Part shown: piece by piece, positions 7,903 to 54,825 of the stretch
Layout of the letters: each line of letters starts with the position of its first letter
Numbering within the stretch: the first letter of the stretch is position 1
From: Cenarchaeum sp.
Lineage (GTDB): Archaea; Thermoproteota; Nitrososphaeria; Nitrososphaerales; Nitrosopumilaceae
Direction: 5' to 3'
Assembly: GCA_965212015.1 (NCBI GenBank)
Contig: OZ243037.1
Span: 1,216,001 to 1,280,000 of the forward strand
DNA length: 64,000 nt
Translations under genes and position numbers: made by a program
The notes under the pieces: model-generated
Database searches by the model: none
What the model was told of the DNA's origin: nothing
The model's input: the letters and a program-made list of their open reading frames with translations, nothing else

Positions 7903-8926
7903 TGCGCCTCCTCCTTCCGAACTGGAGCGGGTTGACTATGCCGTCGCATTCCGGAACGGCAAAGCACAGGTTCTGGGTCTGGAGCTTTGCGCACGAGGGG
8001 CACGAATATTTTGTCCCGCTTCCAGAGGAGCCGGCAAGGTGGTTGAGCTGGTACAGCGTGATCTTTTCGTCATAGTCCGGCGCGTTTTTGAACAGCGGGG
8101 CGATCTGCTGGACGGTCTGGCCCCTGCCAAGCAGGAACGTGGCAAGCATAAAGCGTCCGGAGTGGGGCAGATTCTCGCCGCGCTCTAGCACCTTTATCCC
8201 GTGCTTTATGCACGGCGGAAACTCGGTGGACACCACGGTGCCGGTGGCGAACTTTTTTGCAAGCAGCGCCAGCTTGCTTACCGGCCCCTCAAAGCCGGCG
8301 TACATCTGCGGGGTGTTTGCGGAGGTGATTTTGGAGTGGATATAGTTGCCCAGCTTTGTCCGGATCAGGCGGACGGTCTCGTGTGGGGAGAGAAACACGC
8401 ATCCGTCCTCGACGCGCCTGTTTATCAGGTTCCATTCCCGTTCATGGAATGGCGTGGCGTGCACCACATAGTCAGATACTGAAATCACAAAGCTGTCCTC
8501 GCGCTTTGAGACTGCGACGCCAAACAGGTCCTTTATCAGCCGGACTGCCAGATCGTCCTTTCTTTGGCCGGAGGCGTCGATCAGATCCCTTTCGAGGAAC
8601 TTTTCTGCCCTGCGGGACTCGGCCAGGGCGAACCTCCTGATTAGCGTGTGCATGCCGCCAAACTTTAGCAGGACCACTGCCAGCAGGAACGAAAAGATCT
8701 CGCGCGGAAGAAGCGAGTCACTAGAGACAAAGCTGTCAGTCAGCTCCGACTTGTAGATTTTGCCGTCTGCGGCCACCCGTATCCGGTCATAGGCGCTGTC
8801 CACTATTACCTTCAGGTCGGGATCAGTCCCGAACTGCTCTAGCGAAAAACCCTGGTCCTTGAGATATTTGCCGGAATCTGCAAGAAACGGGTATTTGGCC
8901 ATTTCATCTGAGCCTAGATTTATCAT
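7895..8926 (-). CDS. priL: DNA primase large subunit
   Basis: FPPCI, LPHSGRF, YSCPSCAKL..LC...C Fe-S domain; overlaps priS. Confidence 0.95.
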   Translation of the reverse strand: MINLGSDEMAKYPFLADSGKYLKDQGFSLEQFGTDPDLKVIVDSAYDRIRVAADGKIYKSELTDSFVSSDSLLPREIFSFLLAVVLLKFGGMHTLIRRFALAESRRAEKFLERDLIDASGQRKDDLAVRLIKDLFGVAVSKREDSFVISVSDYVVHATPFHEREWNLINRRVEDGCVFLSPHETVRLIRTKLGNYIHSKITSANTPQMYAGFEGPVSKLALLAKKFATGTVVSTEFPPCIKHGIKVLERGENLPHSGRFMLATFLLGRGQTVQQIAPLFKNAPDYDEKITLYQLNHLAGSSGSGTKYSCPSCAKLQTQNLCFAVPECDGIVNPLQFGRRRRNA

Positions 8927-9013: not shown

Positions 9014-11860
9014 TTATCCGAGCTTTTCTAGCTCTGCCAGGTACTCGATCACCTTGATGAATTCCTGGTCTGATATGCGCCCCGCCACCCACCAGTCCGC
9101 CGCATCTTTCACCCATTCGGGAACGTCGGATTTTGCATCCTGCGCTATATAGGATATGATGGAATCGATTGCCTTTTTTGCATCATCAGAATTGTTGCCC
9201 TTTGTGAAAAACCCCGCATTGTTTTTTACCCATTCGGGCAGTGCATCCTCTGGCGGGATATATCCTCCGGTATCGCCGATGCGGACAGATACCGATCCGC
9301 GCTGCGTCAGCGAGTCTCGGTCCTCGCCCGCATACACCAGTACGGTGTGGTTTCCCGGTGTATCCGGTATCCAGGACAGCGCGGCAGACGCAGTCCTGTT
9401 TGCCGCTATCGTACCCGCAATGGAGCTTGCAGCAGAGTTTGCCGGCGCTATCTGGTATACGAACGGCAGCTCTGTGCCGTCCCTGCTGCGAATCTCTGCT
9501 GCAATGTGTACCATCTGGTTCTGCTCTAATACGGATACGCCCTCGCCGGCAGAGTTTACCGTCCTTATGTCGGATATTACCAGTGAGTCTGCCTGGGGTT
9601 TTTCCGTTATGTTTATTTTATCCTGTACCATGATGAATCCATGTGCGTGCCTGTCACGATCTCTGGCTATGTAGAAATGCAGTCCGGGTTCGTTGAATGT
9701 GAATGCAAAGGTGCTGCGTTGCGAGTCTCCTATGGCTTTCTTGCAAATACGGTGCTTTATTCCAAGTTTGTTATCGACTACAGGAATGCATTTTTCTGCA
9801 TTCATGCTCCATTGTATGGTGTCACCCACATCTACCTTGATGCCGTTTGGAACAATACACAGCGAGCCGGTACATCGATCGTCATTTTTGGAATCCGTGA
9901 TTAATACCTGGTTTGTTTCTGTAAATTCCACACCTAGCGCCTTTGTCGGGCAACTCCCCGACCAAAAACATTTTCTAGGATCATTATTGGCCCACAGTTC
10001 ACCATTATCACGATTCATAGATGCACCTTGGATTGTTATGTGCTCTGCACCCCTGAGAAACGGGATCTGCAAAGTGATTGCATCAGGGGATATGATCTTG
10101 TCTTCAATAGCCCTTATGCCGTCTACTGTGAGACGGAATTTATTATACAAAAATGCATGTGGTTTTATAACCTCTTGTGGCAGCGTGATGGTCAGTGATC
10201 CCGATTCCGTGGCAGTCATGTTTATCAGCATGAATGTGCCATATTCCTCACGTGAGTTAATAGAATCATAAAACGTCTCGACTGATTGTATGCTTCCCCC
10301 GTCCATGACATATTTTAGCTCATCACCCGTGTTTCTTATCTTTATAGTCTGTCCCGACTCTGTGGGAAGCACGTAGGGCGGGGGAAACAGCTTGTTGCCT
10401 GTTATCTCTATCGTGTTTTCGACTCCGGGCTCCAGGTGCGGAGTAAACCTTATGGTGTTGCTGATGGTGTTTTTTGTGCCAGAGACTCCGACATTTTCCC
10501 CATTGTGCGTCACTACAAACTCGTCGCCCAAAAGCGTGTACGGGATTGTCACCTCAAAGGGATACCTCTCCCGTCCAAAGCTCTTTGTCACAATCTCCAG
10601 CTTTTTATCCTCGGGCACAAACTCCATGCTGCATATGGTTCCAAGCTGCCTTGTAACTACCTCTAGCCCTTTTCCATTAGCATCTATAACAAACCTGTCC
10701 TTGTGGAATTCCTCGGGCTTTTCACGCCCGTCGTTTCTTACCGTCTCGCTTTGAAACTCTTCGCCGTGGGAAAGATCAAACCTTGATCCTCCAGCCTCAA
10801 AGCTTATCCTGATCTTTTTGTATCCGCAGCTGGTGCTCTCCAGGTGCTCTAGGTCCCCGACGCCCCTTCCATAGTGTTCCCTTTTTATCTCCCCGCCGTA
10901 CAGGTCAAGCTTGTCTACAAGCTCCCGGGGGTACTGGAGCGTTATGCTGCCCGAATCCTCCGTCATTATGGAAAACCCATGCTTGCCAAAGTGGGAAATC
11001 TCACCTGTGGTCATCTCGTAGGGTATGTCGTACAGATAGCTTGCAGTGTACAGCTTTGCCACCCCTTTTGTCCTGTCATCGTTCAGATAATGGAGCCCAA
11101 ACCCGTCGTATATCAGTCCCGTGGAAATTAACTTTACAAAGTCGTGCCTTGCAATGTTTGGCAGCTCGTCTACTGGCAGGACTATGTGCAGGGTGTTGGA
11201 CTTTGCCACCTTGTCCAGTGGGGGTATGTATCCTATTCTGTCGCCGGGTATGGCCTTTAGGACGTCAAGCAAAAGCTCCATGTTCTTGGAATTATACGTG
11301 ATTCCAGTCGTAAAATGCTGCTCCCCTATGTGTATCACCACATCCATCACGTCTATCATGTCGTTTTCTATTGCGTCCATAAAGTATGCAAACTGCCTGT
11401 CAAACTTTGGATTGTCCTTTATTCTCTGGGCTATGCTTGCGTCAGGATCATCAACGTGTGCCGGCTCCTTGGCTATTATTACGCCTACAAACCTGTGCTG
11501 TAAAATGTCCGGCAATACGGACGCCGGAATCGCAGCTTCTGCCACGTATCCAAAGACCGGATGCGACACTACTGTGGCGTTTACGTTATAGTGGTTTATC
11601 AAGAGTGACGCTATGGTCTCTGCGGTGAGCTTTATGGTGCCAGAATCATCGCCTAGCCTGTGCGGCACTATCATAAAGTTGTGCTCATACATTGCATTTT
11701 CATCTATCAGATGGAGTAGCTTGTCTGAGAATCCAAAGTACCTGTCGTCTGATCTTATCTGCTCTGACAGAGAGACCTCTTGTGCATGGGCGTAAAGCGG
11801 GACTACAAGCATGCATGCTGCCAAAACGAGCAACATGTGTGGATTTTGCATCGGATCCAC
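9014..11860 (-). CDS. Large mosaic secreted/surface protein (repeated beta-sandwich domains, cupredoxin-like domain, thaumarchaeal PxWVKxxAxWW tail)
   Basis: Signal peptide ending AHA; VGDTIQW...FTFNEPG cupredoxin-like segment; C-terminal PEWVKNNAGFF and PEWVKDAADWW repeats; lower GC than the flanks. Confidence 0.8.
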   Translation of the reverse strand: MDPMQNPHMLLVLAACMLVVPLYAHAQEVSLSEQIRSDDRYFGFSDKLLHLIDENAMYEHNFMIVPHRLGDDSGTIKLTAETIASLLINHYNVNATVVSHPVFGYVAEAAIPASVLPDILQHRFVGVIIAKEPAHVDDPDASIAQRIKDNPKFDRQFAYFMDAIENDMIDVMDVVIHIGEQHFTTGITYNSKNMELLLDVLKAIPGDRIGYIPPLDKVAKSNTLHIVLPVDELPNIARHDFVKLISTGLIYDGFGLHYLNDDRTKGVAKLYTASYLYDIPYEMTTGEISHFGKHGFSIMTEDSGSITLQYPRELVDKLDLYGGEIKREHYGRGVGDLEHLESTSCGYKKIRISFEAGGSRFDLSHGEEFQSETVRNDGREKPEEFHKDRFVIDANGKGLEVVTRQLGTICSMEFVPEDKKLEIVTKSFGRERYPFEVTIPYTLLGDEFVVTHNGENVGVSGTKNTISNTIRFTPHLEPGVENTIEITGNKLFPPPYVLPTESGQTIKIRNTGDELKYVMDGGSIQSVETFYDSINSREEYGTFMLINMTATESGSLTITLPQEVIKPHAFLYNKFRLTVDGIRAIEDKIISPDAITLQIPFLRGAEHITIQGASMNRDNGELWANNDPRKCFWSGSCPTKALGVEFTETNQVLITDSKNDDRCTGSLCIVPNGIKVDVGDTIQWSMNAEKCIPVVDNKLGIKHRICKKAIGDSQRSTFAFTFNEPGLHFYIARDRDRHAHGFIMVQDKINITEKPQADSLVISDIRTVNSAGEGVSVLEQNQMVHIAAEIRSRDGTELPFVYQIAPANSAASSIAGTIAANRTASAALSWIPDTPGNHTVLVYAGEDRDSLTQRGSVSVRIGDTGGYIPPEDALPEWVKNNAGFFTKGNNSDDAKKAIDSIISYIAQDAKSDVPEWVKDAADWWVAGRISDQEFIKVIEYLAELEKLG

Positions 11861-12026
11861 CTGCGAGCCGGTTGCTAATTATATATTACTCAGAATTCTA
11901 CAGTTCGTAATGTGTGATACGCGCAATCTCGGATCGGGTTTGTTTCTGATGCCCATTTGTCAAAAATCAGGCAAAAAACACCAATGGCGGCAATCTGTGG
12001 GATCCGCAAGTATCACAACATATCTG

Positions 12027-12070
12027 ATCGATGAGGTGATTTGCAGTGACTAATAATCACCTCGATCGAT
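12027..12070. repeat. Inverted repeat (15/16 bp with one bulge) in a divergent intergenic region
   Basis: ATCGATGAGGTGATT (12027-12041) ... AATCACCTCGATCGAT (12055-12070). Confidence 0.6.
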
Positions 12071-12081
12071 ACAATCCACAT

Positions 12082-12613
12082 ATGAGGAAATTCACATGTT
12101 TTTCGTTTATCGTACTGCTTTTGTCTTCTGTGATCACGTTTCCCATGTCCTCGGATGATTGCATATGGACAGGATCTGGGGGAAATCAGGGAATACCTGA
12201 CATCATCCCGCACAGGTGATGTATTTTACATCGACATACCAGAGGAATATGTTCTTTTTGGAAAGGACATCAATGTTTTTGCCGAGCTTGAAAGCAGTTC
12301 CAGTATTATCGAGCCTCGGCTACTAGAGTTTGCAGATACTGACGGCAACGGCATAGTCGATCAGGTGCGATGGAGCAATCCCTCGTCCCAGGCATCCGGT
12401 GACTCGTCTGGTCAAGATTATGTGTTTTATATTGATGCGGGGGAATCTAATTTCACGGATGCGGAAAAACAACTAGAAAAAATGCAAGACAGATTTGATG
12501 TAGGATTTTACAAGAAAACACTCGGCATGCTCAACGCCAAGGCATCCGGAAGCCTTCAGACACATCTTGATTCCGTGAGGGGCGAATCCGGAGGGTTTTT
12601 CATTCCCATCTAG
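12082..12613 (+). pseudogene. Frameshifted, probably truncated secreted-protein gene
   Basis: The signal-peptide-like MRKFTCFSFIVLLLSSVITFPMSS (12082-12153) is one base out of frame with MIAYGQDL... (12155-12613); DTDGNGIVD Ca-binding-like motif. Confidence 0.6.
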
Positions 12614-12721
12614 TTATGCGGGGCCGGCCGCAGAGCCGGGGCACCGCAATTGCCCGCACCGGCCTGGTGTGCCGCCACACGAATATACGGATTTAAATTA
12701 TGCCAGCCTGACTTTACGCTG

Positions 12722-13555
12722 ATGCGGATAGGATGCCACGTGTCGATTTCAGGCGGAATCGACAGATCGGTGGATAATGCAGTGGAAAGAGAGTGCACGG
12801 CGTTTCAGATTTTTACGCGCAATCCCCGCGGATGGCGTGCCAAGGAGATTACCGATTCTGAGGCGGACGTGTTTGGGACAAAGCTGAAAAAAAGCGGCAT
12901 AGACAAATCGGCAGTATGCGTGCACATGCCGTATCTGCCAAACCTCTCGTCTACAAACGACGAGTCATACGCAAAGTCAGTCCAGACGCTAGTCGACGAG
13001 ATAAAGAGATGCGGCAAGCTGGGAATCCCGTACCTTGTGACCCATCTGGGCAGCCACCTGGGAGCAGGAGAGGAAAAGGGGATTGCCAGACTGGTAGGGG
13101 CGTACAAAAAGGCAGCCAAGGTAGAAAACGGCGTGACTGTCCTGCTTGAAAACACGGCGGGGCAGAAAAACTCTGTGGGCTCTGACTTTGGGCAGCTGGG
13201 ATCCATCTTTTCACAGCTGGGATCCGGTTTTGGAATATGCATCGACACGTGTCACGCGTTCGTCCACGGATATGACCTGCGTACACAAAAGGCGGTAAAA
13301 AATACGTTTGACGAGTTTGACAGCATTATAGGATTCGAGAATCTAAAGATTTTGCACCTCAATGACGCAAAGGGTGAGATCGGCTCAAAGCTTGACAGGC
13401 ACCAGCACATCGGCCTTGGAAACATAGGCAAAGCGGGCATGCAGGCCGCAGTCAGAATGGCCAAAAAGAGGGACATTCCCGTCGTGCTAGAGACGCCGAT
13501 AGACGACGAGCGGGACGATTTTGCAAACATCAGGATCGCGCGGGAGCTTGCATGA
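12722..13555 (+). CDS. nfo: Endonuclease IV (AP endonuclease)
   Basis: IGCHVSISGG, HMPYLPNL, LLENTAG, CIDTCH, HLNDAK, DRHQHIG, LETP. Confidence 0.95.
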   Translation: MRIGCHVSISGGIDRSVDNAVERECTAFQIFTRNPRGWRAKEITDSEADVFGTKLKKSGIDKSAVCVHMPYLPNLSSTNDESYAKSVQTLVDEIKRCGKLGIPYLVTHLGSHLGAGEEKGIARLVGAYKKAAKVENGVTVLLENTAGQKNSVGSDFGQLGSIFSQLGSGFGICIDTCHAFVHGYDLRTQKAVKNTFDEFDSIIGFENLKILHLNDAKGEIGSKLDRHQHIGLGNIGKAGMQAAVRMAKKRDIPVVLETPIDDERDDFANIRIARELA

Positions 13556-33594: not shown

Positions 33595-34506
33595 CTACAG
33601 TTCCAGCATGTCCTTGAGGCCCTTGTAGCGGTTCCGGATGGTCACCTCGGTGACGCTGGCCGCCTCGGCAATGTCCCTCTGCGTCTTGTCCTCGCCGTTT
33701 TTTACGCACGACAGGTACAGTGCCGCCGCTGCCAGTCCCATCGGATCCTTGCCTGCCGATACCTGGTCTTTTTGCGCCCTTTTTAGCACCTTGATTGCAT
33801 AGCGCTTTGTTTTTTCGGTGATTCCAATCATGCTTGATATCCTTGCCACGCACTGAATCGAGTCGGTAACCGGCATCCTTAGATCAAGCTCCTTTACTAG
33901 CAGCCTGTAGCACCGCGCGATGTCCTTTCTCTTGATGTTGGCTGCCTGCTCGACGTCCTTTAGGTTTCGCGGTGTCGAGGTGTCGCGGCACGCAGCATAC
34001 AGCGCAGATGCCATCAGTGCAGAAATTGATCGCCCTCGGACCAGCCCCTTTTCTAGTGCCTTGCGGTAGATGTATGCGGCCTTTTCTATTACGGCGTCTG
34101 ATATGGCCATCTTGTCCTTGAGCCTGTTAAGCTCGCCGAACGCCTGCCGAAAGTTCCTGTCGACAGGCTCGTGGACCTGGCTCCTGCTGTCCCATGTCCG
34201 CAGCCGCTCTATCGTGCTTTTCATCGAGGCCGTAAGCGGCCTTCCGGAGGCATCCTTGTTTACGGGGTTGATGACGGTGGCAAGCCCCATGTCATGCATT
34301 GTAAGCGACGTCGGGGCCCCCGCCCTTGCCCTGTCGCCGTGCTCGCCTTGCGTAAACGAGCGCCATTCCGGTCCGGATTCCTGGAGTTTCTCAGAGAGGA
34401 CAAAGCCGCACTTTGAGCAAAACATCTCTCCGGACTCGTTGTCAGTCACCAGCTGGCCCTTTGCACACCTGGGGCACGTGTCTTTGGGATTGGAATGTTT
34501 TGCCAT
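33595..34506 (-). CDS. tfb: Transcription initiation factor IIB
   Basis: CPxC..CxxCG Zn ribbon, GPEWR, HDMGL, two cyclin repeats, TEVTIRNRYK. Confidence 0.97.
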   Translation of the reverse strand: MAKHSNPKDTCPRCAKGQLVTDNESGEMFCSKCGFVLSEKLQESGPEWRSFTQGEHGDRARAGAPTSLTMHDMGLATVINPVNKDASGRPLTASMKSTIERLRTWDSRSQVHEPVDRNFRQAFGELNRLKDKMAISDAVIEKAAYIYRKALEKGLVRGRSISALMASALYAACRDTSTPRNLKDVEQAANIKRKDIARCYRLLVKELDLRMPVTDSIQCVARISSMIGITEKTKRYAIKVLKRAQKDQVSAGKDPMGLAAAALYLSCVKNGEDKTQRDIAEAASVTEVTIRNRYKGLKDMLEL

Positions 34507-34642
34507 GATATCACGATTGTAGGATTTGTCAGGCCCGAGGGATATATGAAGCAACAACTTGGACGCAGTCCCGTCCCGTCCCGAAAGGGGGGTTTTTCTG
34601 GTTTTCAGAATGTAGAAAAGACGGAGACATTGTAGTGCTGGT

Positions 34643-35575
34643 ATGAACCATAAAGTCGTCGCGCTGCTAGCGGCCCTTGCAGTGGCCGGATTGTCTTCTG
34701 CGTCTGCAGAGACTGTCAGGGAATCCGCCGAGGGCGGAATGGACATTGAGATCACGTATCCGGACACCGCCATCATCGGGCGCGATTTTCCGGTTTCATT
34801 TCTGATTCACAACAACGGGTGGGAGGACAAGGAACGGGTGGTCATCCGGTTCGATCCGGACGATGCAATAGTGCCGGTCACAAAAAACAGCACGGGGATA
34901 GAAAAGATTGCAGCCGGCGGCTCTTACGGCGATACCGTGGACTTTGCGGTGCTGCCAGGCGCCTCGGCGGGAATTCATTTTCTCAACCTGGACTATTCGC
35001 AGGTGCTGCTTGAGAACAACGAGACGCCGAGGCCAGAGACGCGCACCAACATTGCAATAGCCCTGGACATAAGGGAGCAGGCCAGAGTCTCCATCCACGC
35101 CGCGGCACCGGAATCAATCTTTGCCCGGGCCGAGTTCCCGTTTACCGTAGAGGTGCTGTCAGAAGACGTGGATCTGAGAGACGTGCACATAGAGATCATT
35201 GCGCCCAAGGACATTGAGTTTAGGGGCGAGACGCTGCACGTCTTTTCGTCCGTCAAGAGGGGCGAGACGCTGGGCATCACGTCTAGAATCATCACGCCGG
35301 CAGAAGAGGTGCAGGCCGAATACAGCGTTCCGTTTCAGATTCTGGTAAGCTATGACGACGCAGGAAAAAGGCAGGAGGACTCGCAGACAGTTTCGCTGAC
35401 CCTGAGGCCGCGGTCCTTTATGGAGCTGACCACGGACGGCGGAATCTGGATAGGCGGGATTTTCATTGCGCCGTACATAAGCCTGGGCACCATAATCGGG
35501 ATTCCCGCAGGCGCGGTTTTTTCATTGCTGATCAAAAAAAGAAGGCAAAAACCCCGGGAGGCAGGCAGGACATGA
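34643..35575 (+). CDS. Exported Ig-like/S-layer-domain membrane-anchored protein
   Basis: Signal peptide, two beta-sandwich repeats, C-terminal TM + basic tail. Confidence 0.7.
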   Translation: MNHKVVALLAALAVAGLSSASAETVRESAEGGMDIEITYPDTAIIGRDFPVSFLIHNNGWEDKERVVIRFDPDDAIVPVTKNSTGIEKIAAGGSYGDTVDFAVLPGASAGIHFLNLDYSQVLLENNETPRPETRTNIAIALDIREQARVSIHAAAPESIFARAEFPFTVEVLSEDVDLRDVHIEIIAPKDIEFRGETLHVFSSVKRGETLGITSRIITPAEEVQAEYSVPFQILVSYDDAGKRQEDSQTVSLTLRPRSFMELTTDGGIWIGGIFIAPYISLGTIIGIPAGAVFSLLIKKRRQKPREAGRT

Positions 35576-37038
35576 TGCCGGCGCCGGCTGCGTTTTTTGC
35601 AGCACTTTTGTGCGCGGTGCTGATTCCGGGTGCGGCAGGGCACGGGATCGGCTACGAGGTGCTCCCGCCGATGCCGCTAGGCGACAGGATGGTGGAGCTG
35701 GAGATAGTCTCCTCGCAGTACGAGAATCTCGGCAATCCCGACAGGGAGATTCAGTTTTCGCTGCGTGACGCAGGTGATGAGTCCCCCGTCGAAGACGTGA
35801 CATACCGCGTAGTGGCCACCAAGGCCGGCGGTTTTCTCTTTGATCAGACGCTTGCGGCGGCAGACGGGGTGTTTGTCTTTGTTTTGGAGGGCGGCGAGTC
35901 CGACGAGGTTTCGCTTGAAAAAAGGGGGCAGGGAGGATGGTTCGAGTCAATAGCAGGCCTGAAAAAGGAGGTCATTTACGCCAGCGGCGCGGCATTTCAG
36001 ACGGGCGGGCTGTACAAGTTCAAGGTGGACATATCATCCGCAGCCGGGCCCCCCATAGCGTACGACGTGGGACTGTCCGTTCCCGACACGGTGTCATTTG
36101 ACATACGGGATCCAAACTTTGGAGTGCAGAGGATAAACCTCACCTCGTACTATGACGAGGTCTCGGATTTTGCATACGATCCGGATTCCAGGGGCGTCTC
36201 GTTTTCAATGCCCTTTGAGTGGGACATTGGCAACATAAACGAGACATCCGTGGTTCACGAGGAGGTGGCGTTCCCAAAGACCTTCGGCGACGTGCTGGTG
36301 GCCCGGTATGACACGCACGTAAACGGGATCAAGATGCCCGAGAGGGTTACCGTAATAGACGATTTTTCAGAGGGGCGCAGGACCGTGCACATGGTGCTCA
36401 ACCAAAACGATCTTCGGGGCATCCTGGACGGACAGGAGCGGGACGTCATGGATTTTTTGCTGGTGCCAAAGGACGGCTCCCCGTTTATCCTGGTCACCGA
36501 GAACGGGCAGTTTAGAATCACAGTCAGCCGGGATCCGGGAGGCTCCGAATCCGGCACCGAGACTTTTCTTTTTGACATTACCGACGTATTCCTAAAGAAC
36601 ACCCCGGTTGCAGTCAGCTATGAGGTGTTCCTGGAGCACGACGGGAGGGTGGTTGCCGGCACGGGGGGAACCAGTGATGATTCGGGCAGGCACAACGAGT
36701 TTGGCGCGCCTGTCGGCGCAGACTCTGGCGTGATGGTCCTCCGGTTTGAGAATCTGGACGGCAATGCACTGGCCCGGGCCGAATTGCCGATAGTCGTCGG
36801 GTCGGATCACGTCACAATCCCGGACTGGTTTCGGGACAATGCCGGATGGTGGTCAGGCGGCAGGATTAGCGACTCGGATTTCATTGCATCGATGGAATAC
36901 GTGACGGGAATGCGCATAACCGGGACTGCAATACCTGACTGGTTTCGGGACAGTGCGGCGGGGTGGTCGGACATGGAAATCTCCGGCGGGGACTTTGCAG
37001 CCGGAGTACGCCGCCTCATGGCAGAGGGGACATTATGA
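35572..37038 (+). CDS. Thaumarchaeal exported protein with IPDWFRDxAxWW tail repeats
   Basis: Signal peptide ending AAG-H, SYYD..FSMPF.W..VHEEV..P motifs, two IPDWFRD repeats. Confidence 0.78.
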   Translation: MMPAPAAFFAALLCAVLIPGAAGHGIGYEVLPPMPLGDRMVELEIVSSQYENLGNPDREIQFSLRDAGDESPVEDVTYRVVATKAGGFLFDQTLAAADGVFVFVLEGGESDEVSLEKRGQGGWFESIAGLKKEVIYASGAAFQTGGLYKFKVDISSAAGPPIAYDVGLSVPDTVSFDIRDPNFGVQRINLTSYYDEVSDFAYDPDSRGVSFSMPFEWDIGNINETSVVHEEVAFPKTFGDVLVARYDTHVNGIKMPERVTVIDDFSEGRRTVHMVLNQNDLRGILDGQERDVMDFLLVPKDGSPFILVTENGQFRITVSRDPGGSESGTETFLFDITDVFLKNTPVAVSYEVFLEHDGRVVAGTGGTSDDSGRHNEFGAPVGADSGVMVLRFENLDGNALARAELPIVVGSDHVTIPDWFRDNAGWWSGGRISDSDFIASMEYVTGMRITGTAIPDWFRDSAAGWSDMEISGGDFAAGVRRLMAEGTL

Positions 37039-37776
37039 CTTGGAGTGTCTGACTGTGGCTAGTATCGCAATTGCAATTCCGGCGGCACCCATCGCCATTC
37101 CGGCATAGCTAATGCCTGCAAGCTGGCCTGCCTGCGCCTTGATGTCTTTTTTAATCGAGCCTATCTCGCCTACGAGTGCGGCATGCCCGTCGATGATCTG
37201 CTTTATGGTCTGATCCTCGGGTTCCGGAAACTCAATGTCCGATCTCTCGCTTACCTTGGGCGGGTGCATCGAGATGCTAACCGGTGTGCCGCGGATCTCG
37301 CCGAGCAAGTTGACCTGATAGAATCCGGATGCCGTGGGGTTTACAAACGCGTGGTACTTGCCGGCTATATTGTGATCCTCGACTAGGGGCAGCGTCGTCT
37401 TTTCGTCCTCAAACACCAGCTGCATCTTTAGGTCCCCGGCGAGTCCGGCTATGCCGTTTTTGAATTCCTGCGACATGGCACACCCCGCGTGGTCTCCGGT
37501 ACACGGATCAAGCTGCCCGATTCTAAGCTCGATTCCGTTGGTCTCGCGGCTGATGACAGGCTCGTTCATCCAGCCTATCTCCAGCCTATAGTCTTCGACA
37601 GAGTCCACCGTATGGGCGTAAACCCCCGGAACCATTGCAGGGGCCACAAAAAGAACCACGACGTACCAAAGATCCAACACGCGTGGTCTTTTTTCTAGCG
37701 TTAAAAACGTTAAACCGGCTCTAGTTTCAGGCATCCGCATACATCGAGACCTCCCAGGCAGTAGGGGTCTGGGCAA
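37033..37776 (-). CDS. Exported membrane-anchored hypothetical protein
   Basis: AHT mature start, IGWMNEP, C-terminal TM; start probably downstream of the ORF start. Confidence 0.7.
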   Translation of the reverse strand: MPRPLLPGRSRCMRMPETRAGLTFLTLEKRPRVLDLWYVVVLFVAPAMVPGVYAHTVDSVEDYRLEIGWMNEPVISRETNGIELRIGQLDPCTGDHAGCAMSQEFKNGIAGLAGDLKMQLVFEDEKTTLPLVEDHNIAGKYHAFVNPTASGFYQVNLLGEIRGTPVSISMHPPKVSERSDIEFPEPEDQTIKQIIDGHAALVGEIGSIKKDIKAQAGQLAGISYAGMAMGAAGIAIAILATVRHSKS

Positions 37777-39172
37777 ACGCGACGTATTCCTTGTATTTCA
37801 GCTCGGAGTACTTTTCCAAAAAGTCCGCAGTAAAGACGTCAATTAGAAACGCATTGTCGCCTTTCAGGGCGTCTAGCGCGCCCTTGAGGGACAGGGGCAG
37901 CGAGCCGATCTTGTATTCGCGTTTTTTTTCTGCGGAAAGCTTGTAGACGTTCTCCTCGACCGGATCGCCGGGATCCAGCTTTCTTTTGATGCCGTCAAGG
38001 CCCGCAAGCAGCAATGCTGCCTCGAGCAGATAGATGTTTGCGGTGGGATCCGGAACCCGGTACTCTATTCGCTTGCTTTTTTCCTGGTTCCTGTTGTACA
38101 TGGGAATCCTGACTGCCGCCGACCTGTTTCCTATGCCCCAGCACATGTTTACTGGCGCCTCGAATCCCGGCACCAGCCTCTTGTAGGAGTTTGTGGTGGG
38201 ATTCGTGATTGCGCACAGCGCCTGGGCGTGCTCAAGTATTCCGCCCACATAGTACCTGCCAGTCTGGCTGAGCTGGGCCACGTCGTCGTCGGCGTCGTAC
38301 ATTACGTTGGTCTTGTCCCTCCATATGCTCTGGTGCGTGTGCATTGCAGAGGCGTTGTCGCCATAGATGGGCTTTGGCATAAAGGTCGCAACCTTGTTGT
38401 TGCGCTTGGCCTTTACCCTCACCATGTTTTTGACGGCAATGACATTGTCGGCCATTTTTGTCATCTCGTCGTACACCAGGTTGATCTCGCACTGCCCCGA
38501 GGTGGCCACCTCGTGGTGCTCTGCCTCGATTTTTATCTTGAAATACTGATAGAGATCATCGCAGACGTCCTTTCTGAACGTCTCAAGCGTGTCTTTGGGC
38601 TGCGACGGATAATAGCCCTCCTTGATGTCTATGGCCGTGCTGATGTTTCCCTTTGCCCACGGGGATTCCTTTGACTCTATCGAGTATCCAGAGCCGCCGT
38701 ACGAGTGCGTTGCGGCATAAGGCGACGGATACACGTTGATCGTGTCAAAGACAAAAAACTCTATCTCCGGGCCCCAGCTGGTGTGTGTCAGGCCGGTCTC
38801 GGTCAGTTTCCCGCCGGCCTTTTTTGCAATCCCCCTCGAATCCCGGTTGTACCGCGATTGGACCGACGTGTTGCCCTCGTACAAATCACAGATCAGCCTG
38901 GCGTTTTTGCGGCGTCCGTTGTCATAATCCGGGGGCATAATCCTAAACGTGTCCGGATCCGGCTTTAGTAACATGTCGGACTTGTTTACCGACTTGAAGC
39001 CCACAATGGAGCTTGCGTCCAGCTTTTCGAGGCCGTGCCTAAAGCTGTTCTCGTCTATGGCATAGCTTGGCATCCCCATCCGCCTCAGCTCCCCGAAAAT
39101 GTCCACAAACCAGAAATCAAGGAACGTGATATTGTCATCCCGGATCGTCTTTAGGACAGCCTGTACATCCAA
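37727..39172 (-). CDS. glnA: Glutamine synthetase type I, paralogue A
   Basis: GPEIEFF, HHEVATSGQCEI, FMPKP, NSYKRLVPGFEAP, NRSA, RIEYR.PD. Confidence 0.95.
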   Translation of the reverse strand: MDVQAVLKTIRDDNITFLDFWFVDIFGELRRMGMPSYAIDENSFRHGLEKLDASSIVGFKSVNKSDMLLKPDPDTFRIMPPDYDNGRRKNARLICDLYEGNTSVQSRYNRDSRGIAKKAGGKLTETGLTHTSWGPEIEFFVFDTINVYPSPYAATHSYGGSGYSIESKESPWAKGNISTAIDIKEGYYPSQPKDTLETFRKDVCDDLYQYFKIKIEAEHHEVATSGQCEINLVYDEMTKMADNVIAVKNMVRVKAKRNNKVATFMPKPIYGDNASAMHTHQSIWRDKTNVMYDADDDVAQLSQTGRYYVGGILEHAQALCAITNPTTNSYKRLVPGFEAPVNMCWGIGNRSAAVRIPMYNRNQEKSKRIEYRVPDPTANIYLLEAALLLAGLDGIKRKLDPGDPVEENVYKLSAEKKREYKIGSLPLSLKGALDALKGDNAFLIDVFTADFLEKYSELKYKEYVAFAQTPTAWEVSMYADA

Positions 39173-39246
39173 CGTACATATCTCTGCGTCCGGTTTACTA
39201 ATGCTGTCAAGTAAGATAGTTTTAGCTTTCTTGTAAATAGTGCAAA

Positions 39247-40611
39247 TTAGTCGCGCTTTAGGCTGCGCGCCCCGGCGTATTTGGTGCCAAGCTCGCCGGC
39301 AAACATGAATTCGTCCTCAAATGCCGGCTTTAGGTCGTCCAGCCAGATTGCATCCTCGTCGTATTTGGCATAAAACGGCTTGTTGACCCATTCCGGATTC
39401 CTTCCCTGCAAGAACCGCAGGGACATGACTTTTTGCCCGTTTATCACGGGGGTGCCGTCCACTAGCACCTTGCCGGGAGTCGCAGACATGCTAGGCCCCC
39501 GGACCGTCCTGCCCAGGCCGCTTACCTGCTTGTAGGCGTCCCTGAATATCTCATAGGCCCTCACCAGCGGGACGCCAAAGTAATGCTGCGCCCCCGTGTC
39601 GCGAACCACGAACATATAGTACGGAACGCACCCGAGCTGGACCTGATCCCTCCACATCTTGCTCCATACTGCTGCGTCGTCGTTGATGTGCGCCAGCAGC
39701 GGGGACTGGGTCCTGATCTGGGCGCCGGTGGCGTGAATCTTTTTGATTGCCAGCTTTGCCGCATCCGTCTTTAGCTCCACGTGGTGGTTAAAGTGTGACA
39801 TTATGGCCAGATGAATCCCGCTTTTGGTGATTTCCCGGAATGTTTCCAGCGTCTGCTCTGCGTCGCCGTCAGAGCTGACCTTGTACGGCCAGTACGCCAG
39901 CATTTTGGTGCCGATTCTTATGGTTTTGAGGTTTGGCAGGTCCGCCCCTAGCAGCGTGTCCACGTATCCCCTGAACATCTTGGCGTTCATGATCATCGGA
40001 TCGCCTCCTGTAAAGAGCACGTCGGAGATCTCTGGGTGCTCCCGGACATACTGCACCAGCTGTTCGCCCTCGCGCATTGCAAACTTCATGTCATCCATCC
40101 CGACAAACTGCGGCCATCTGAAGCAAAAGCTGCAGTATGCGTGGCACGTCTGGCTCTGGCTGGGGAAAAACAGGCACGTCTCTTTGTATTTGTGCTGCAT
40201 TCCGTACAGCTTTGTGCCGTCCCGGAGCACGGGCACGTTGAGCTCAAGCTGCCCCGCCGGGTGCGGGTTTAATTGCAGCCTTATCTCGTTGGCCGCCTGC
40301 GCAATCTCTTTTTTGTCGGCATTGTTTTTCAGCTTTTCTGCCATGGCCTCAAAGTGCTGCGTCTTGAGCATGTTTTTTTGCGGAAACGTCAGCACGTACA
40401 TGGGATCGTTGGGAATGTTATCCCAGTCGATTAGCTGCTCTACCACATAGTTGTTGGCCTTGAAGGGCAGCACGTTTCCGACGACTTCCATTTCAAACTT
40501 GGTCTGCTCGGGGAGCTGCTGGATCTGCGGCAGCTGCCTAAAGTTGGCCAGCGTGTATGATTTTAGCGAGGGGGACTCTGTCTCGCTCCAGACAGATTCT
40601 TGCAGCGCCAT
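39247..40611 (-). CDS. KamA-family radical SAM/PLP aminomutase
   Basis: HKY, CHAYCSFCFR (CxxxCxxC), LFTGGDP, IRIGTK, HFNH, QSPL, PYYMF, PGKV. Confidence 0.9.
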   Translation of the reverse strand: MALQESVWSETESPSLKSYTLANFRQLPQIQQLPEQTKFEMEVVGNVLPFKANNYVVEQLIDWDNIPNDPMYVLTFPQKNMLKTQHFEAMAEKLKNNADKKEIAQAANEIRLQLNPHPAGQLELNVPVLRDGTKLYGMQHKYKETCLFFPSQSQTCHAYCSFCFRWPQFVGMDDMKFAMREGEQLVQYVREHPEISDVLFTGGDPMIMNAKMFRGYVDTLLGADLPNLKTIRIGTKMLAYWPYKVSSDGDAEQTLETFREITKSGIHLAIMSHFNHHVELKTDAAKLAIKKIHATGAQIRTQSPLLAHINDDAAVWSKMWRDQVQLGCVPYYMFVVRDTGAQHYFGVPLVRAYEIFRDAYKQVSGLGRTVRGPSMSATPGKVLVDGTPVINGQKVMSLRFLQGRNPEWVNKPFYAKYDEDAIWLDDLKPAFEDEFMFAGELGTKYAGARSLKRD

Positions 40612-40760
40612 TAGTTGGATTGCCGCCCACTATTGTTAAAGGTTGGTATAAAACCAGAGTCAGGCGCGAAAACTAGGCGCGGCAGGCGTGTAAAAAACCC
40701 CGCTACAGGCGGCTTTCCCAAAATTTTTTAATCGATGAATTGGTGCACAAGTGACTGATA

Positions 40761-42491
40761 ATGGCCGAAGATGAGATAATAAACACCGTCTCAGGCCAGG
40801 TGGGCCAGTTTGAGACGGTCTTTGAGCTTTTGGCCTCGTCGCAGTCCCTGCAGATCGCCTTTGCCATACTGATCGCAGGCATAGTTGCAATCGTGCTGGC
40901 CTACAGGATGCTCTCGAGGTGGACCGCATCGCGCAAGCTGAGCTATATCAGGCCCCATGTTTCAAGGTTCGTAAGGGTCGCCATACTTCCGTTTTTTGCA
41001 ATAGCGCTAATCACCTCCACTAACGCATACATACAGACATTCGAGCTGTTCGATGACGCGTCAGGCGGCTCGGCAAACGAGACCTTTGCCAAGATGCTAA
41101 ACACGATGAACGTGCTGGTAATAGGGTATACGGTGGCGCAGCTTGTCCCCATAATCATGACAAAGCGCGAAAAGACCAGCCTGGAGAGAGATGACTATGA
41201 GATCTGGAAGTCGATGAGGGGGTTTCCGGACGACGAGGGAGATTTCTTTCACAAGCTGTTCAGGTGGATCCCGCCGCAGCATGTTCCGGAGGACATGACA
41301 GACGACGAGTTCCAGAAATACATGGGCACCGACGAGGGCAGGGACTATCTCGAGGAGTTTCGCACCACAAAGGGGATTCCGATCGGAAGCTACGAGAATC
41401 TAGTCGACGAGCCGTTTGAGAAATGGAAGAAAGAAGAGCGCAGGAAATACACGGCGTACTTTGAGAGCTGCGTCTCTGGCGACAACGAGTCGGGAAGAAA
41501 GCTAAAGACGGGACAAAAGACAGAAGAGGTATACCCCATAGATACGTGGAGGGAGGAAAAACGCGTCAGCGGCTACGGTGCAATCGTTGCCGGCGCAAGA
41601 CCGTCCGGATACGCCACAAAAAAGCGAAAGGACGTTCCAAAATCGGTAATGCAGATTATTCCAATCGGCGTCTTTGCGGCAGTGGTTCTCGGGGTGATAA
41701 GCTGGTGGGGCATAGACCTGATAGTCCTTGCAACTGCAACCGGCGGATTTGCAATCGGCATCGGCCTTGCGCTGCAAGAGACGATGCAGAACTGGTTTGC
41801 ATACATTATGATAAGAAAGGACAAGATAGTAGCCGAGGGCGACAGGATCGCCCTAGAGAGCGGCTACAACGGATATGTACACAAGATCACGGCACGGGTG
41901 ACGTACATCCGCCACGGCATGAACGAGTCGTACGCGATAATACCCACGAGGAACCTCATCAACGCCCAGATTATCAACTTTTCAAAGGACTCAAAGCTGG
42001 TGCCGGCAGTAGTCGATGTGGGCGTGTCCTACCTGAACGATCCCAAGCAGGTGGCCTCCATCCTAGTCAAGATCGGAAAGCGGGCAATGTCCGAGATTAC
42101 AGACGAGAAGGGAAGGCACCTGATCAGGCAAAAGAGATGCCCGTATCTGGCAGAGAACAAGGCAAGCTGCGGGTGCGATTCCGGGCTGCACATAGACATC
42201 AGCCAGCCGGTGGTGCGGTTCAACAAGTTCAACGACTCGGCGCTTGACTTTTCGGTGTGGGTCTATGTCAGGGACTATGGCGCACAGTTCAAGGCAAAGA
42301 CGGACATGAGGATGATCATGTACGAGGAGTTCAAAAGGTATGATGTCAGGATTCCATGGCCCATCAGAACCGTCTATCAGGGCGACGAAAAGAGGGAATC
42401 CGAGGAGATTGGAAGGCTTGACGGGGATCGCAACAAGGCAATAGACGAGTTCGGAGTCGGGGACATCTCCAAGGGCGGATCGGAGGAATAG
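40761..42491 (+). CDS. mscS: MscS-family mechanosensitive channel with a large soluble insertion
   Basis: GGFAIGIGLALQETMQN pore helix, GDRI, IPTRNL, VGVSY, F....SALDF, IPWPIRTV. Confidence 0.88.
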   Translation: MAEDEIINTVSGQVGQFETVFELLASSQSLQIAFAILIAGIVAIVLAYRMLSRWTASRKLSYIRPHVSRFVRVAILPFFAIALITSTNAYIQTFELFDDASGGSANETFAKMLNTMNVLVIGYTVAQLVPIIMTKREKTSLERDDYEIWKSMRGFPDDEGDFFHKLFRWIPPQHVPEDMTDDEFQKYMGTDEGRDYLEEFRTTKGIPIGSYENLVDEPFEKWKKEERRKYTAYFESCVSGDNESGRKLKTGQKTEEVYPIDTWREEKRVSGYGAIVAGARPSGYATKKRKDVPKSVMQIIPIGVFAAVVLGVISWWGIDLIVLATATGGFAIGIGLALQETMQNWFAYIMIRKDKIVAEGDRIALESGYNGYVHKITARVTYIRHGMNESYAIIPTRNLINAQIINFSKDSKLVPAVVDVGVSYLNDPKQVASILVKIGKRAMSEITDEKGRHLIRQKRCPYLAENKASCGCDSGLHIDISQPVVRFNKFNDSALDFSVWVYVRDYGAQFKAKTDMRMIMYEEFKRYDVRIPWPIRTVYQGDEKRESEEIGRLDGDRNKAIDEFGVGDISKGGSEE

Positions 42492-44409: not shown

Positions 44410-45132
44410 ATGCTCAAGGATGCCATCAGGGCGCTGTTGAATTCAAAAAAAATCGTGTTTGTCACCGGCGCGGGGATTTCCCAGGAGAGCGGAATTCCGA
44501 CATTCAGGGGAAAGGACGGGCTTTGGAGAAGGCATGATCCCATGAAGCTGGCCACGATTGACGCCTTTAACGAGGATCCGGCGCTTGTCTGGGAGTGGTA
44601 CGAGGACCGGCGGAGGGCCGTCTGCTCTGCAGTACCCAATCCCGGACACGCGGCAATCGCTGAGCTCGAGGAGTTTTATTCCGTGTCCGTGCTGACGCAA
44701 AACATAGACGAGCTGCACCAGAGGGCGGGAAGCTCCAGCGTCCTGGAGCTGCACGGCAGCATAGTCCGGACAAAGTGCACCGCCTGTGATTTTCACGGCA
44801 GGGCCGAAAGCTTTGCAGAGCTGCCTCCTGCGTGCGAGTGCGGCGGCATCTTGCGCCCCGACGTGGTATGGTTCGGAGAACCGCTCTGCCAGGAGGTCTG
44901 GAACGGGGCGGCGCGCGAGGCAGAGATGTGCGACATGATGATCATCGCCGGAACGTCGCTCAAGGTGTCGCCGGCAAACAGGCTGCCGGAGCTTGCCAGG
45001 CAGAACGGCGCGTTTCTGGCAGAGATAAATCCAGAAAAGACGGAAATGACCGGCGACATGGACGTCTCTATCAGGGATACGTCATCACGCGTGCTTCCAA
45101 GACTGGTAGAGGCCGCAAAGTCAAATGGCTAG
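44410..45132 (+). CDS. cobB: Sir2-family NAD-dependent protein deacylase
   Basis: GAGISQESGIPTFRG, TQNID.LH, LHGS, RPDVVWFGE, GTSL.V.PA. Confidence 0.93.
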   Translation: MLKDAIRALLNSKKIVFVTGAGISQESGIPTFRGKDGLWRRHDPMKLATIDAFNEDPALVWEWYEDRRRAVCSAVPNPGHAAIAELEEFYSVSVLTQNIDELHQRAGSSSVLELHGSIVRTKCTACDFHGRAESFAELPPACECGGILRPDVVWFGEPLCQEVWNGAAREAEMCDMMIIAGTSLKVSPANRLPELARQNGAFLAEINPEKTEMTGDMDVSIRDTSSRVLPRLVEAAKSNG

Positions 45133-53364: not shown

Positions 53365-54825
53365 TTGCCGTATAAAGTCAGCCATGGAAAAGCCCTCGAA
53401 TTAAAATATTCAGCAGACGAGGTGTTTTCAAAGATTCAGCACGAGGGAATAAAGTTCATAGATTTGCAGTTTACCGGCCTGACGGGAAGGTTTCACCATA
53501 CGACGATTTCCGCCATTACGTTTACCCCAGAGCAGATGCGTGACGGCCTTCCAAAGCTAGACGGCTCCTCCATAGTGGGCTTTACCAGCATTGACGACTC
53601 TGATCTGGTCCTAAAGCCGGATCCCAACACCTTTGCGATAATCCCGTGGTACACGGAGAACAAGACTGCAAGGCTGCTTTGCGACGTGTACTGGGGCGAG
53701 GATAGGGGCAGGCTGCAAAGGGATCCGCGCGGAATCGCGCAGGGGGCAGAGGAATCCGTCACCGCCGCCGGCTTTGATCACAGCGTGTGGGGGCCAGAAG
53801 TCGAGTTTTTCGTATTTGACAAGATCCACTGGGACGTCTTGACGCCATACAAGGGGCAGTCGTATTCCATCGAGTCAGAGGAGGCGCCGTGGAGCCAGGA
53901 GGGTTCGGGCTATCCCATGGGACTACAGGAGGGATACTATCCAAGCACGCCGTCAGACACGCTCACCCCGTTTAGAAACGAGTGCGTCAATATTCTCAAC
54001 GAGAGCTTTGGGATCCTGTGCGACAACCACCACCACGAGGTGGCCACTGCGGGGCAGTGTGAAATAGACATACGGTACGACTATCTGACAAACGCCGCAG
54101 ACTCTACCCAGTCGTACAAGTTTGTAATCCGGAACGTTGCAAAAAAATTCGGAAAGATTGCAACAATGATGCCAAAGCCCATCTCTATGGATTCGGGCTC
54201 GGGAATGCACACCAACGTAAGCCTGTGGAAGAACAAAAAGAACATCTTTTTTGACGCCACAGAAGAGATGGAGCTAAGCCAGGTCGGAAGATATTTCTGC
54301 GGCGGAATTTTAAACCACGCAAAGGCGCTGTGCGCAATCTCAAACCCCACCACGAACTCTTATCACAGGCTGGTTCCCGGATACGAGGCGCCAGTTTATG
54401 TCGCGTGGAGCGGCAGCAACCGTTCTGCAATCGTGAGGGTTCCCAGGCATTTCAAGGGCGAGGGCTATTCGTTTCTGAAACGGCTAGAGTTCCGCGCCCC
54501 CGACCCGTCATCCAACCCGTACCTGGTCTTCTCGTCGGTGCTCGCCGCCGGGCTAGACGGCGTCAAAAAGAAGATGGATCCCGGCGAGCAGGTACAGGAG
54601 GATATTTTCAAGATGACAAAGGCCGAGAGGATCAAGAGGGGAATCGACATCCTGCCTGCCAACCTAGGCGAGGCGCTCGACGAGCTTGAAAGCGACAGAA
54701 AGTTCCTACAGCCCATATTTCCCAACGACGTAATCAACCGGGTAATAGAGCTGGAAAGAAGGGATCAGAGGGAGATTTCCATCAGGCCGCACCCGCACGA
54801 GTTTTATCTGTACTTTGACGTATAG
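53365..54825 (+). CDS. glnA: Glutamine synthetase type I, paralogue B
   Basis: DGSSI.GF, GPEVEFF, HHEVATAGQCEI, NSYHRLVPGYEAP, RLEFRAPD, PHPHEF.LY. Confidence 0.96.
   Translation: MPYKVSHGKALELKYSADEVFSKIQHEGIKFIDLQFTGLTGRFHHTTISAITFTPEQMRDGLPKLDGSSIVGFTSIDDSDLVLKPDPNTFAIIPWYTENKTARLLCDVYWGEDRGRLQRDPRGIAQGAEESVTAAGFDHSVWGPEVEFFVFDKIHWDVLTPYKGQSYSIESEEAPWSQEGSGYPMGLQEGYYPSTPSDTLTPFRNECVNILNESFGILCDNHHHEVATAGQCEIDIRYDYLTNAADSTQSYKFVIRNVAKKFGKIATMMPKPISMDSGSGMHTNVSLWKNKKNIFFDATEEMELSQVGRYFCGGILNHAKALCAISNPTTNSYHRLVPGYEAPVYVAWSGSNRSAIVRVPRHFKGEGYSFLKRLEFRAPDPSSNPYLVFSSVLAAGLDGVKKKMDPGEQVQEDIFKMTKAERIKRGIDILPANLGEALDELESDRKFLQPIFPNDVINRVIELERRDQREISIRPHPHEFYLYFDV

Follow-up and report, generated by a model that had tools for sequence, protein, structure and literature searches.

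A divergent aminomutase and MscS gene pair as a candidate beta-glutamate osmolyte unit in Cenarchaeum sp. and related Nitrosopumilaceae

Few cells in the ocean outnumber marine ammonia-oxidizing archaea, and a locus of Cenarchaeum sp. (Nitrosopumilaceae; GenBank assembly GCA_965212015.1) raises the question of which gene supplies the solute beta-glutamate in these organisms. The window analyzed here is a stretch of 64,000 nucleotides (contig OZ243037.1, positions 1,216,001 to 1,280,000 of the forward strand). It carries a gene for a KamA-like radical S-adenosylmethionine (SAM) aminomutase, flanked by a divergent gene for a long MscS-family mechanosensitive channel and followed by a gene for a glutamine synthetase (GS) paralog, GS1; a second GS gene, GS2, lies outside the cluster (Table 1). 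An initial annotation of this DNA had proposed that the aminomutase makes a beta-amino acid, that GS1 amidates it, and that MscS releases the product on osmotic downshock. We find that the aminomutase and MscS genes form a well-supported unit. The aminomutase probably represents a new, Arg-type lineage of glutamate 2,3-aminomutases that makes beta-glutamate, with MscS as its release valve, and judged by its pocket residues and its co-occurrence with MscS and often GS1 it is the best candidate for the beta-glutamate route in these archaea.

Passages of Heal et al. 2021 (PMC8269262) report that beta-glutamic acid rises with depth in Pacific particulate metabolomes, and they record none across 21 phytoplankton cultures. 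In the same passages, beta-glutamic acid exceeds every other identified metabolite of Nitrosopumilus maritimus SCM1 and reaches 730 mM, a finding that is repeated in passages of PMC8281238. In the open literature (subscription journals were outside the search), no paper was found that connects an aminomutase with these archaea or names a gene for their beta-glutamate. With a single candidate gene, the origin of the dominant solute in marine ammonia oxidizers becomes testable.

The aminomutase scored 124.5 bits against the KamA family model TIGR00238, under the cut-off of 199.2, and its orthologs scored between 116.6 and 156.2 bits. Against the equivalog models for AblA, EpmB, glutamate aminomutase, and arginine aminomutase, it scored 94 to 116 bits versus cut-offs of 369 to 650 (for EpmB, TIGR03821, 98.4 bits versus 369.3). 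No NCBIfam model claims any member of the aminomutase clade, and the Atlas names for the protein are generic ones only. We nevertheless assign it to the KamA superfamily, because its predicted fold and its motifs match despite the score under the cut-off. A PDB sequence search returned Clostridium subterminale KamA (2a5h) as the sole match, with an E value of 2.7e-18 when the protein was used alone and of 6.6e-37 when a family profile was used. The AlphaFold (AF2) model, which was built from a 50-sequence alignment and reached a mean predicted local distance difference test score (pLDDT) of 92.3, likewise had 2a5h as its top Foldseek match (E of 4e-18, TM-scores of 0.62 to 0.68, about 20% identity). 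The three cysteines of the CxxxCxxC iron-sulfur motif and the residues G202-G203-D204, the SAM-binding GGD motif, align with 2a5h and are invariant in our ortholog alignment (A2), and R165, which follows the cysteine motif, aligns with KamA Arg134. The HMMER alignments to 2a5h end before the S376-K381 segment, which was placed by MAFFT with annotated references. In that alignment K381, the presumed pyridoxal phosphate (PLP)-binding lysine, falls with KamA Lys337 and with the lysine of the GGGGK/GK motif in AblA, EpmB, and BlsG. All rows of alignment A2 share S376, G380, and K381.

The substrate pocket bears on what such an enzyme would act on. KamA Asp293 and Asp330 are presumably the residues that hold the epsilon-ammonium group of lysine. 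The aminomutase stretch PYYMFVVRDTG..YF aligns without gaps with KamA PYYIYQCDLSLGLEHF, and both pairwise and profile alignments place Arg337 in the Asp293 column. That column holds Asp in all four annotated references (AblA of Bacillus velezensis, whose gene adjoins ablB; AblA of Ilyobacter; EpmB of E. coli, whose gene adjoins efp; and BlsG of Xenorhabdus) and Arg in the aminomutase and its orthologs; in lysine- and arginine-acting relatives this Asp would bind the basic side chain. Ser376 occupies the Asp330 column in the MAFFT alignment with the annotated references. Arg in the place of Asp at the 293 column, a reversal of charge, speaks against a basic substrate and in favor of one with a carboxylate or carbonyl side chain.

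The genome, a single contig of 1.76 Mb that is 99.7% complete, contains the aminomutase as its only KamA homolog. The initial annotation had seen neither the beta-lysine acetyltransferase gene ablB nor the elongation factor P (EF-P) ligase gene epmA near the locus, and this extends to the whole genome. AblB (TIGR03827) was not found anywhere in it, and the search for EpmA (TIGR00462) gave two tRNA-synthetase-like matches only, at 87.5 and 64.7 bits versus a cut-off of 286.9. Arg337, Ser376, these two absences, and the lack of any other KamA homolog give indirect support to the view that the aminomutase is not a lysine enzyme. The earlier proposal of a beta-amino acid product is thereby supported, also indirectly, as far as a product other than beta-lysine is concerned, with Arg337, the missing AblB and EpmA, and the presence of beta-glutamate as the main solute of a cultured family member all pointing that way.

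The second line of evidence is the distribution of the three genes. The open reading frame (ORF) positions agree with the layout first described, in which the KamA-family gene lies 74 bp upstream of a co-oriented GS gene and the MscS gene is divergently adjacent. The MscS product scored 31.8 bits against PF00924 (cut-off, 20.2) and 28.6 bits against PF21082 (cut-off, 21). In a first sample, the aminomutase was present in 29 of 36 same-family relatives, and 24 genomes of the order's other families yielded no ortholog and two distant matches of 27 to 33% identity. Because MscS recurs within 1.5 kb of the aminomutase in 22 of these 29 relatives, GS1 in 17, and both in 15, the three-gene arrangement exceeds chance.

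Table 1. Positions of the locus features, numbered from the first letter of the 64,000-nucleotide window
Feature	Position	Strand	Size or basis
GS1, putative accessory type I glutamine synthetase paralog	37727-39172	-	481 aa, TTG start
GS1 loop DNASAMH, residues 272-278	38339-38359	-	21/21 GS1 rows
Spacer between the co-oriented aminomutase and GS1 genes	39173-39246	-	74 bp
KamA-like aminomutase gene	39247-40611	-	454-aa ORF
S376-A-T-P-G-K381	39469-39486	-	MAFFT alignment with annotated references
Arg337, column of KamA Asp293	39601-39603	-	pairwise and profile alignments to 2a5h
CxxxCxxC iron-sulfur motif, C156/C160/C163, then F164-R165	40123-40146	-	alignment to 2a5h
Divergent aminomutase/MscS intergenic region	40612-40760	.	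149 bp
Long MscS-family mechanosensitive channel gene	40761-42491	+	576 aa
GS2, comparison gene outside the cluster	53365-54825	+	486 aa

A class-wide sample comprised 114 genomes of the family, of which 92 have the aminomutase, and 86 genomes from 13 other families, of which none has it. The long MscS gene occurred in 79 of the 114 and GS1-type genes (called at an E value of at most 1e-170) in 69, in every case in aminomutase carriers and never in the 22 family non-carriers; the 86 other-family genomes likewise contained neither. The carriers comprise 62 genomes with all three genes, 17 with aminomutase and MscS, 7 with aminomutase and GS1, and 6 with the aminomutase alone. Both partners are thus nested wholly within the aminomutase carriers, which bears out the co-occurrence that the initial annotation had led one to expect. 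The nesting also holds within polymorphic genera: in g17 all three genes are in the identical 5 of 12 genomes; in g10 the aminomutase and GS1 are in the identical 4 of 12, with MscS in 2 of those 4; in g15 the genes coincide in 1 of 3; and in g24 the aminomutase and MscS are in the identical 3 of 4. In five genomes (G123, G152, G161, G208, and G121) an intact GS1 gene lies on the same contig as the aminomutase but 148 kb to 1.15 Mb away, indicating that physical linkage alone fails to explain the co-occurrence.

We propose that the core of the locus would be a two-gene osmolyte unit formed by the aminomutase and the divergent long MscS gene. The aminomutase, a predicted radical SAM and PLP-dependent enzyme, would convert L-glutamate to beta-glutamate in one step in the cytoplasm, and beta-glutamate would build up together with K+ and serve as the main compatible solute. 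The long MscS would act as an emergency valve through which solutes leave the cell on osmotic downshock, and GS1 would have an accessory part connected with the pool of beta-glutamate. For the release step suggested earlier, what stands is the link between MscS and the aminomutase by co-distribution, MscS being present in 79 of 92 carriers versus 0 of 22 non-carriers. As a separate observation on the channel, the Nitrosopumilus genome G006 has a second copy of the long MscS gene, 55% identical (locus L196, features at 7035-8759 and 10964-12796). This second copy is away from ectoine genes and 2 kb from a gene for a TrkH-like transporter with CBS domains.

Several known systems resemble parts of this proposal. 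With KamA and AblA (C. subterminale 2a5h and methanogen AblA), the aminomutase has in common the CxxxCxxC motif, the Arg134 equivalent, the lysine at the PLP position, and the overall fold, and AblA is likewise presented as an osmolyte-pathway enzyme in archaea in part of a review. It differs from them in its low identity to 2a5h (about 20%), in the replacements of Asp293 by Arg and Asp330 by Ser, in the lack of AblB, and in having MscS and GS as neighbors. With the clostridial glutamate 2,3-aminomutase Eam (Ruzicka and Frey 2007; TIGR04368), it shares the superfamily, the proposed reaction, and presumably the replacement of the acidic lysine-binding residues by basic or neutral ones. However, part of a preprint describes Eam as catabolic or fermentative, whereas the window gene comes from an aerobe. 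In other passages of the literature, bacterial eam and ablA are associated with Na+ riboswitches and counted among osmoprotectant genes, and IdnL4 of incednine biosynthesis is given as a glutamate 2,3-aminomutase with genetic support that is biochemically unproven.

Part of a preprint and a reference list cite a methanogen glutamate 2,3-aminomutase for the osmolyte beta-glutamate (Tunckanat et al. 2022, Biochemistry 61:1077). As an archaeal KamA-family enzyme for osmolyte beta-glutamate, it is likened to the window gene by description only. Separately, a 608-aa protein (P0224) was considered as a methanogen-type enzyme and rejected, as Atlas points to bacteria. The methanogen enzyme is said to have an N-terminal extension of about 160 aa, whereas the CxxxCxxC motif of the window aminomutase starts only 31 residues later than that of 2a5h. 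The ect genes reportedly adjoin mscS in N. maritimus, a member of the family (Widderich et al. 2016); this would follow the same logic, an osmolyte-synthesis gene beside MscS, with a different solute and enzyme from those considered here. Passages of PMC8281238 record the detection of ectoines and give no more on an ect-mscS link. EctC was not found in the genome of the window by a search that had no positive control.

The role of GS1 is less certain than that of the channel. Both GS products pass the TIGR00653 GlnA cut-off of 429.15, with 509.3 bits for GS1 and 532.8 bits for GS2, and the second GS gene is present at position 53365, where the initial annotation had placed it. The best PDB match of GS1 was a cyanobacterial GS (3ng0; 371 bits), against which the blocks EIEFF, HHEVA..GQ.EI, MH, NSYKRL, GFEAP, NRSA.VRIP, and EYR are conserved by eye. 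We take these blocks to carry the metal, ATP, and glutamate ligands. The loop that had drawn attention, DNASAMH in the place of the canonical DNGSGMH, was read correctly and occurs in all 21 GS1 rows (the G003 ortholog was left out of this set). However, its first Gly-to-Ala change (DNAS/DNAV) is ordinary in the order, being found also in 13 of 20 GS rows of the other families. The second, at residue 276, alone is special, with counts of 21/21 in GS1, 2/2 in a third GS type, and 0/39 in other rows; GS2 of the window reads DSGSGMH at this loop. In a comparison of 21 GS1 rows with 37 others, from which two long-branch rows and two third-type rows were dropped, 16 columns that are otherwise conserved are fixed differently in GS1. 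The changes include DGSS to DASS, the Gly of S-G-MH to Ala, and Ser to Gly before NRS, and several of the 16 columns presumably lie in substrate-binding loops.

In the gene tree, the 21 GS1 rows form a clade with a Shimodaira-Hasegawa-like approximate likelihood ratio (SH-aLRT) support of 100. Together with the third type, this clade lies outside the clade (support of 99) that unites GS2 with the 20 GS of other families. GS2 is present in 36 of 36 family relatives and nested among the GS of other families, and by this placement it is the vertically inherited, universal GS of the family. GS1, by its sequence features, looks active; its role is accessory, optional, and dependent on the aminomutase. 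In some genomes the gene is in decay, as seen in a 23-residue remnant (L007), in a gene split over three frames (L108), and in an in-frame TGA with a partial match (G191, G107).

That GS1 amidates beta-glutamate to the neutral solute beta-glutamine is our first guess for this enzyme but the weakest link of the proposal, and we hold it only tentatively. The step has precedent because, according to part of a review, a Methanohalophilus GS turns beta-glutamate into beta-glutamine at high salt. This GS of Methanohalophilus portucalensis is a type I enzyme able to use beta-glutamate, and its product at high salt is a neutral osmolyte. It is described there as a single enzyme called glutamine synthetase, whereas here a separate, dedicated paralog would serve. 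Our next guess is that GS1 is an isoform that can still assimilate ammonia at very high beta-glutamate. GS1 may be a natural GS retuned either for or against a beta-amino acid.

Two further observations concern the GS family. The GS2 orthologs (including L058-L075) read D[S/A]GSGMH, so that none of the 19 rows, some of them from genomes without the aminomutase, has the Asn of the canonical DNGSGMH; the 20 GS rows from other families all retain the Asn. The third GS type (L076 in G025 and L077 in G032) has a DNGSAVH loop, is 46 to 50% identical to GS1, and branches as the sister group of the GS1 clade. It was full-length in 2 of the 36 family genomes of the first sample, with one unplaced partial match of 51% identity in G005.

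Outside the Nitrosopumilaceae, the aminomutase has close relatives without its archaeal neighbors. A whole-library search gave 318 representative clusters at E < 1e-30, and a scan of species genomes with a 13-sequence alignment confirmed 585 relatives. The best 80 of these 585 were examined and comprised 19 from Nitrosopumilaceae and 61 others, the latter being 58 to 66% identical. The 61 non-thaumarchaeal loci come from Balneolales, Bacteroidota (Marinifilum, Ancylomarina, Carboxylicivirga, Marinilabilia, and Rapidithrix), Dehalococcoidia, Ignavibacteria, Gammaproteobacteria (Thiohalobacter and Thioalkalispiraceae), Persephonella, and two Thermoplasmatota. Our impression is that the record names of the bacterial carriers are largely marine. 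Persephonella may accumulate beta-glutamate, for which the literature search gave no confirmation. In the 59 motif-filtered ortholog ORFs from these loci, CxxxCxxCFR and the Arg337 equivalent were present in 59 of 59 and the S...GK pattern in 58 of 59. In a FastTree phylogeny of 126 rows, 49 archaeal rows and one Peribacteria-binned contig form one clade (support of 99), which is nested in a 107-row ortholog group (support of 94). Gene neighborhoods vary among the 61 loci, a class I/II aminotransferase being the most frequent neighbor (11/61). The solitary position of the gene and its identity of about 60% between domains are in keeping with a trait that needs one enzyme, for example the conversion of glutamate to beta-glutamate. 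A bolder version of the proposal is that the Arg-type KamA clade is the main marine route to beta-glutamate, transferred to many bacterial phyla, and that Nitrosopumilaceae have built it into a make-convert-release cassette with GS1 and MscS; we regard this as doubtful.

Some individual orthologs are of interest in their own right. The contigs L127 (a "Candidatus Peribacteria" bin) and L117 (an "Acidobacteria" bin) carry aminomutases of 65 to 66% identity that fall inside or beside the archaeal clade, which reflects either gene transfer or mis-binned archaeal contigs. In a marine gammaproteobacterial metagenome-assembled genome, a gene for a 310-aa MscS lies directly downstream of the ortholog (L128, 7672-8604). 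In Rapidithrix thailandica, a gene for an asparagine-synthase-type amidotransferase lies just 5' of it (L134, 3710-5680).

More distant paralogs of 46 to 54% identity keep the Arg-Asp-Thr-Gly stretch but occupy other gene settings, and their representatives fall outside the tight ortholog group in the FastTree phylogeny. One from Streptomyces lies in a cluster with Dpg and nonribosomal peptide synthetase genes. On plasmid pRHL1 of Rhodococcus jostii RHA1 (L037, 3020-16707), a paralog is two genes from a Lys/Orn-type N-monooxygenase gene, in a cluster that also encodes a methionyl-tRNA synthetase-like protein, a saccharopine-dehydrogenase-like protein, two ATP-grasp ligases, an adenylating enzyme, a carrier protein, and a thioesterase. 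This looks like an uncharacterized natural-product cluster that possibly forms N-N bonds, and a metagenomic protein (P0124) has a Lys/Orn-type N-monooxygenase fused to a KamA-like domain. On a plasmid of Amycolatopsis sp. AA4 (L033, 5026-17230), a paralog is found amid genes for a Glu/Leu/Phe/Val dehydrogenase, an aminotransferase, a CoA-transferase, two MaoC dehydratases, and two CoA-ester lyases. Such a setting would be suited to a C5-dicarboxylate, and the cluster may serve the breakdown of a C5 amino-dicarboxylate via a beta-amino acid. The gene contexts of the Nonomuraea, Nocardia, and Mycetohabitans homologs were uninformative.

Several observations weigh against a beta-glutamate unit of aminomutase and MscS. 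The clostridial glutamate 2,3-aminomutase model TIGR04368 gave the protein 94.4 bits versus a cut-off of 650 (89 bits on the genome), and the Arg/Ser pair of the pocket differs from the Lys/Asn pair that Eam reportedly has at the positions of KamA Asp293 and Asp330. Since paralogs that keep the Arg lie in actinomycete secondary-metabolite clusters, the Arg alone is no proof of glutamate as the substrate. Aminomutase orthologs carry the NCBI names Nitrosopumilus sp. K4 and Ca. N. koreensis AR1, but strain SCM1, the source of the solute, is not among the named ortholog rows. Passages of a 2005 review give early nuclear magnetic resonance evidence against an aminomutase route in methanogens, for which a glutaconyl-CoA route was proposed, and no report of beta-glutamine in these archaea was found in the literature passages covered. 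As for the partners, 13 of the 92 carriers lack MscS. A required role for GS1 is opposed by its absence from 23 of the 92, by its decaying copies, and by five of five bacterial carrier genomes without a GS1-type gene, where the best match was 44% identical. One of the 61 non-thaumarchaeal loci has an MscS gene as a neighbor, and none has a GS gene. In genus g20, the aminomutase is present in 9 of 11 genomes, the long MscS in none, and GS1 in only 3. The g20 aminomutases (G023, G101, G104, G128, G138, G146, G171, G182, and G192) are more divergent, at 59 to 68% identity, and this genus is a natural test case for aminomutase function without the usual partners.

The missing partners would be expected if the three genes were neighbors by descent only, with MscS a general valve, GS1 an ordinary second GS for nitrogen assimilation, the aminomutase an enzyme with an unrelated role, and their joint absences due to block deletions. 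Gene order is broadly conserved in the family, a phosphoribosyl pyrophosphate synthase gene and a hypothetical gene are equally syntenic with the cluster, and block gain or loss of adjacent genes can yield co-absence. The solitary bacterial orthologs and the nine g20 carriers without MscS also fit this explanation. A phylogenetically corrected test was underpowered: on a tree of the GS2 genes from 37 family genomes, the pattern of the aminomutase requires five changes, or two when well-supported branches alone are counted. The independent-pairs test had two well-supported pairs (five on the best tree), too few for significance, although in none of them did a partner trait move opposite to the aminomutase. 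We nevertheless consider mere descent unlikely. MscS and GS1 never occur without the aminomutase in the 22 family non-carriers and 86 other-family genomes, presence tracks exactly inside the polymorphic genera, GS1 is kept more than 100 kb away in five genomes, and 16 clade-specific changes mark GS1 at otherwise conserved columns.

If the genes do belong together, the aminomutase might act on a different acidic or polar substrate, such as 2-aminoadipate, a modified amino acid, or L-glutamine, which GS1 would supply and which would be turned directly into beta-glutamine. Arg337 and Ser376 suit any side chain that bears a carboxylate or carbonyl, the GS1 gene follows immediately and is confined to genomes with the aminomutase, and paralogs with the same Arg are found in natural-product clusters. 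However, the measured solute of N. maritimus is beta-glutamic acid and not its amide, and the 23 carriers without GS1, the five bacterial carriers without a GS1-type gene, and the 61 loci without a GS neighbor are further obstacles, so that we think another substrate improbable. Hardly credible is a lysine 2,3-aminomutase, although the source records use that name, AblA is the best NCBIfam equivalog match (TIGR03820; 116 bits), and 2a5h is the sole structural relative by sequence, for the score is far under the cut-off of 525.4, Arg and Ser occupy both columns of the presumed lysine-holding Asp residues, AblB is missing and EpmA has no match above its cut-off in the genome, and archaea are not known to have EF-P.

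If the aminomutase does make beta-glutamate, a marker gene would allow the production of this solute, a sizeable pool of carbon and nitrogen, to be read from metagenomes and transcriptomes, and it could account for the rise of beta-glutamate with depth in seawater particles. It would also add a glutamate 2,3-aminomutase lineage from an aerobe; in part of a preprint on synthetic carbon fixation, oxygen tolerance is named as the obstacle for the glutamate 2,3-aminomutase reaction.

The surroundings of the cluster offered some minor observations. The intergenic region between the aminomutase and MscS genes shows by eye TATA-like stretches that are rich in A+T. On the minus strand, a 247-aa ORF (37033-37776) shares 50 nt with the 3' end of GS1. 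It had no Pfam or NCBIfam match in our scans, shows by eye a hydrophobic N-terminal stretch and a C-terminal anchor, and is syntenic 3' of GS1, or of the aminomutase where GS1 is absent, in many Nitrosopumilaceae loci. Farther out, the product of 33595-34776 (minus strand) resembles by eye a TFIIB-type transcription factor with a zinc ribbon and cyclin repeats, and that of 44410-45132 (plus strand) resembles a Sir2-type deacetylase, also by eye.

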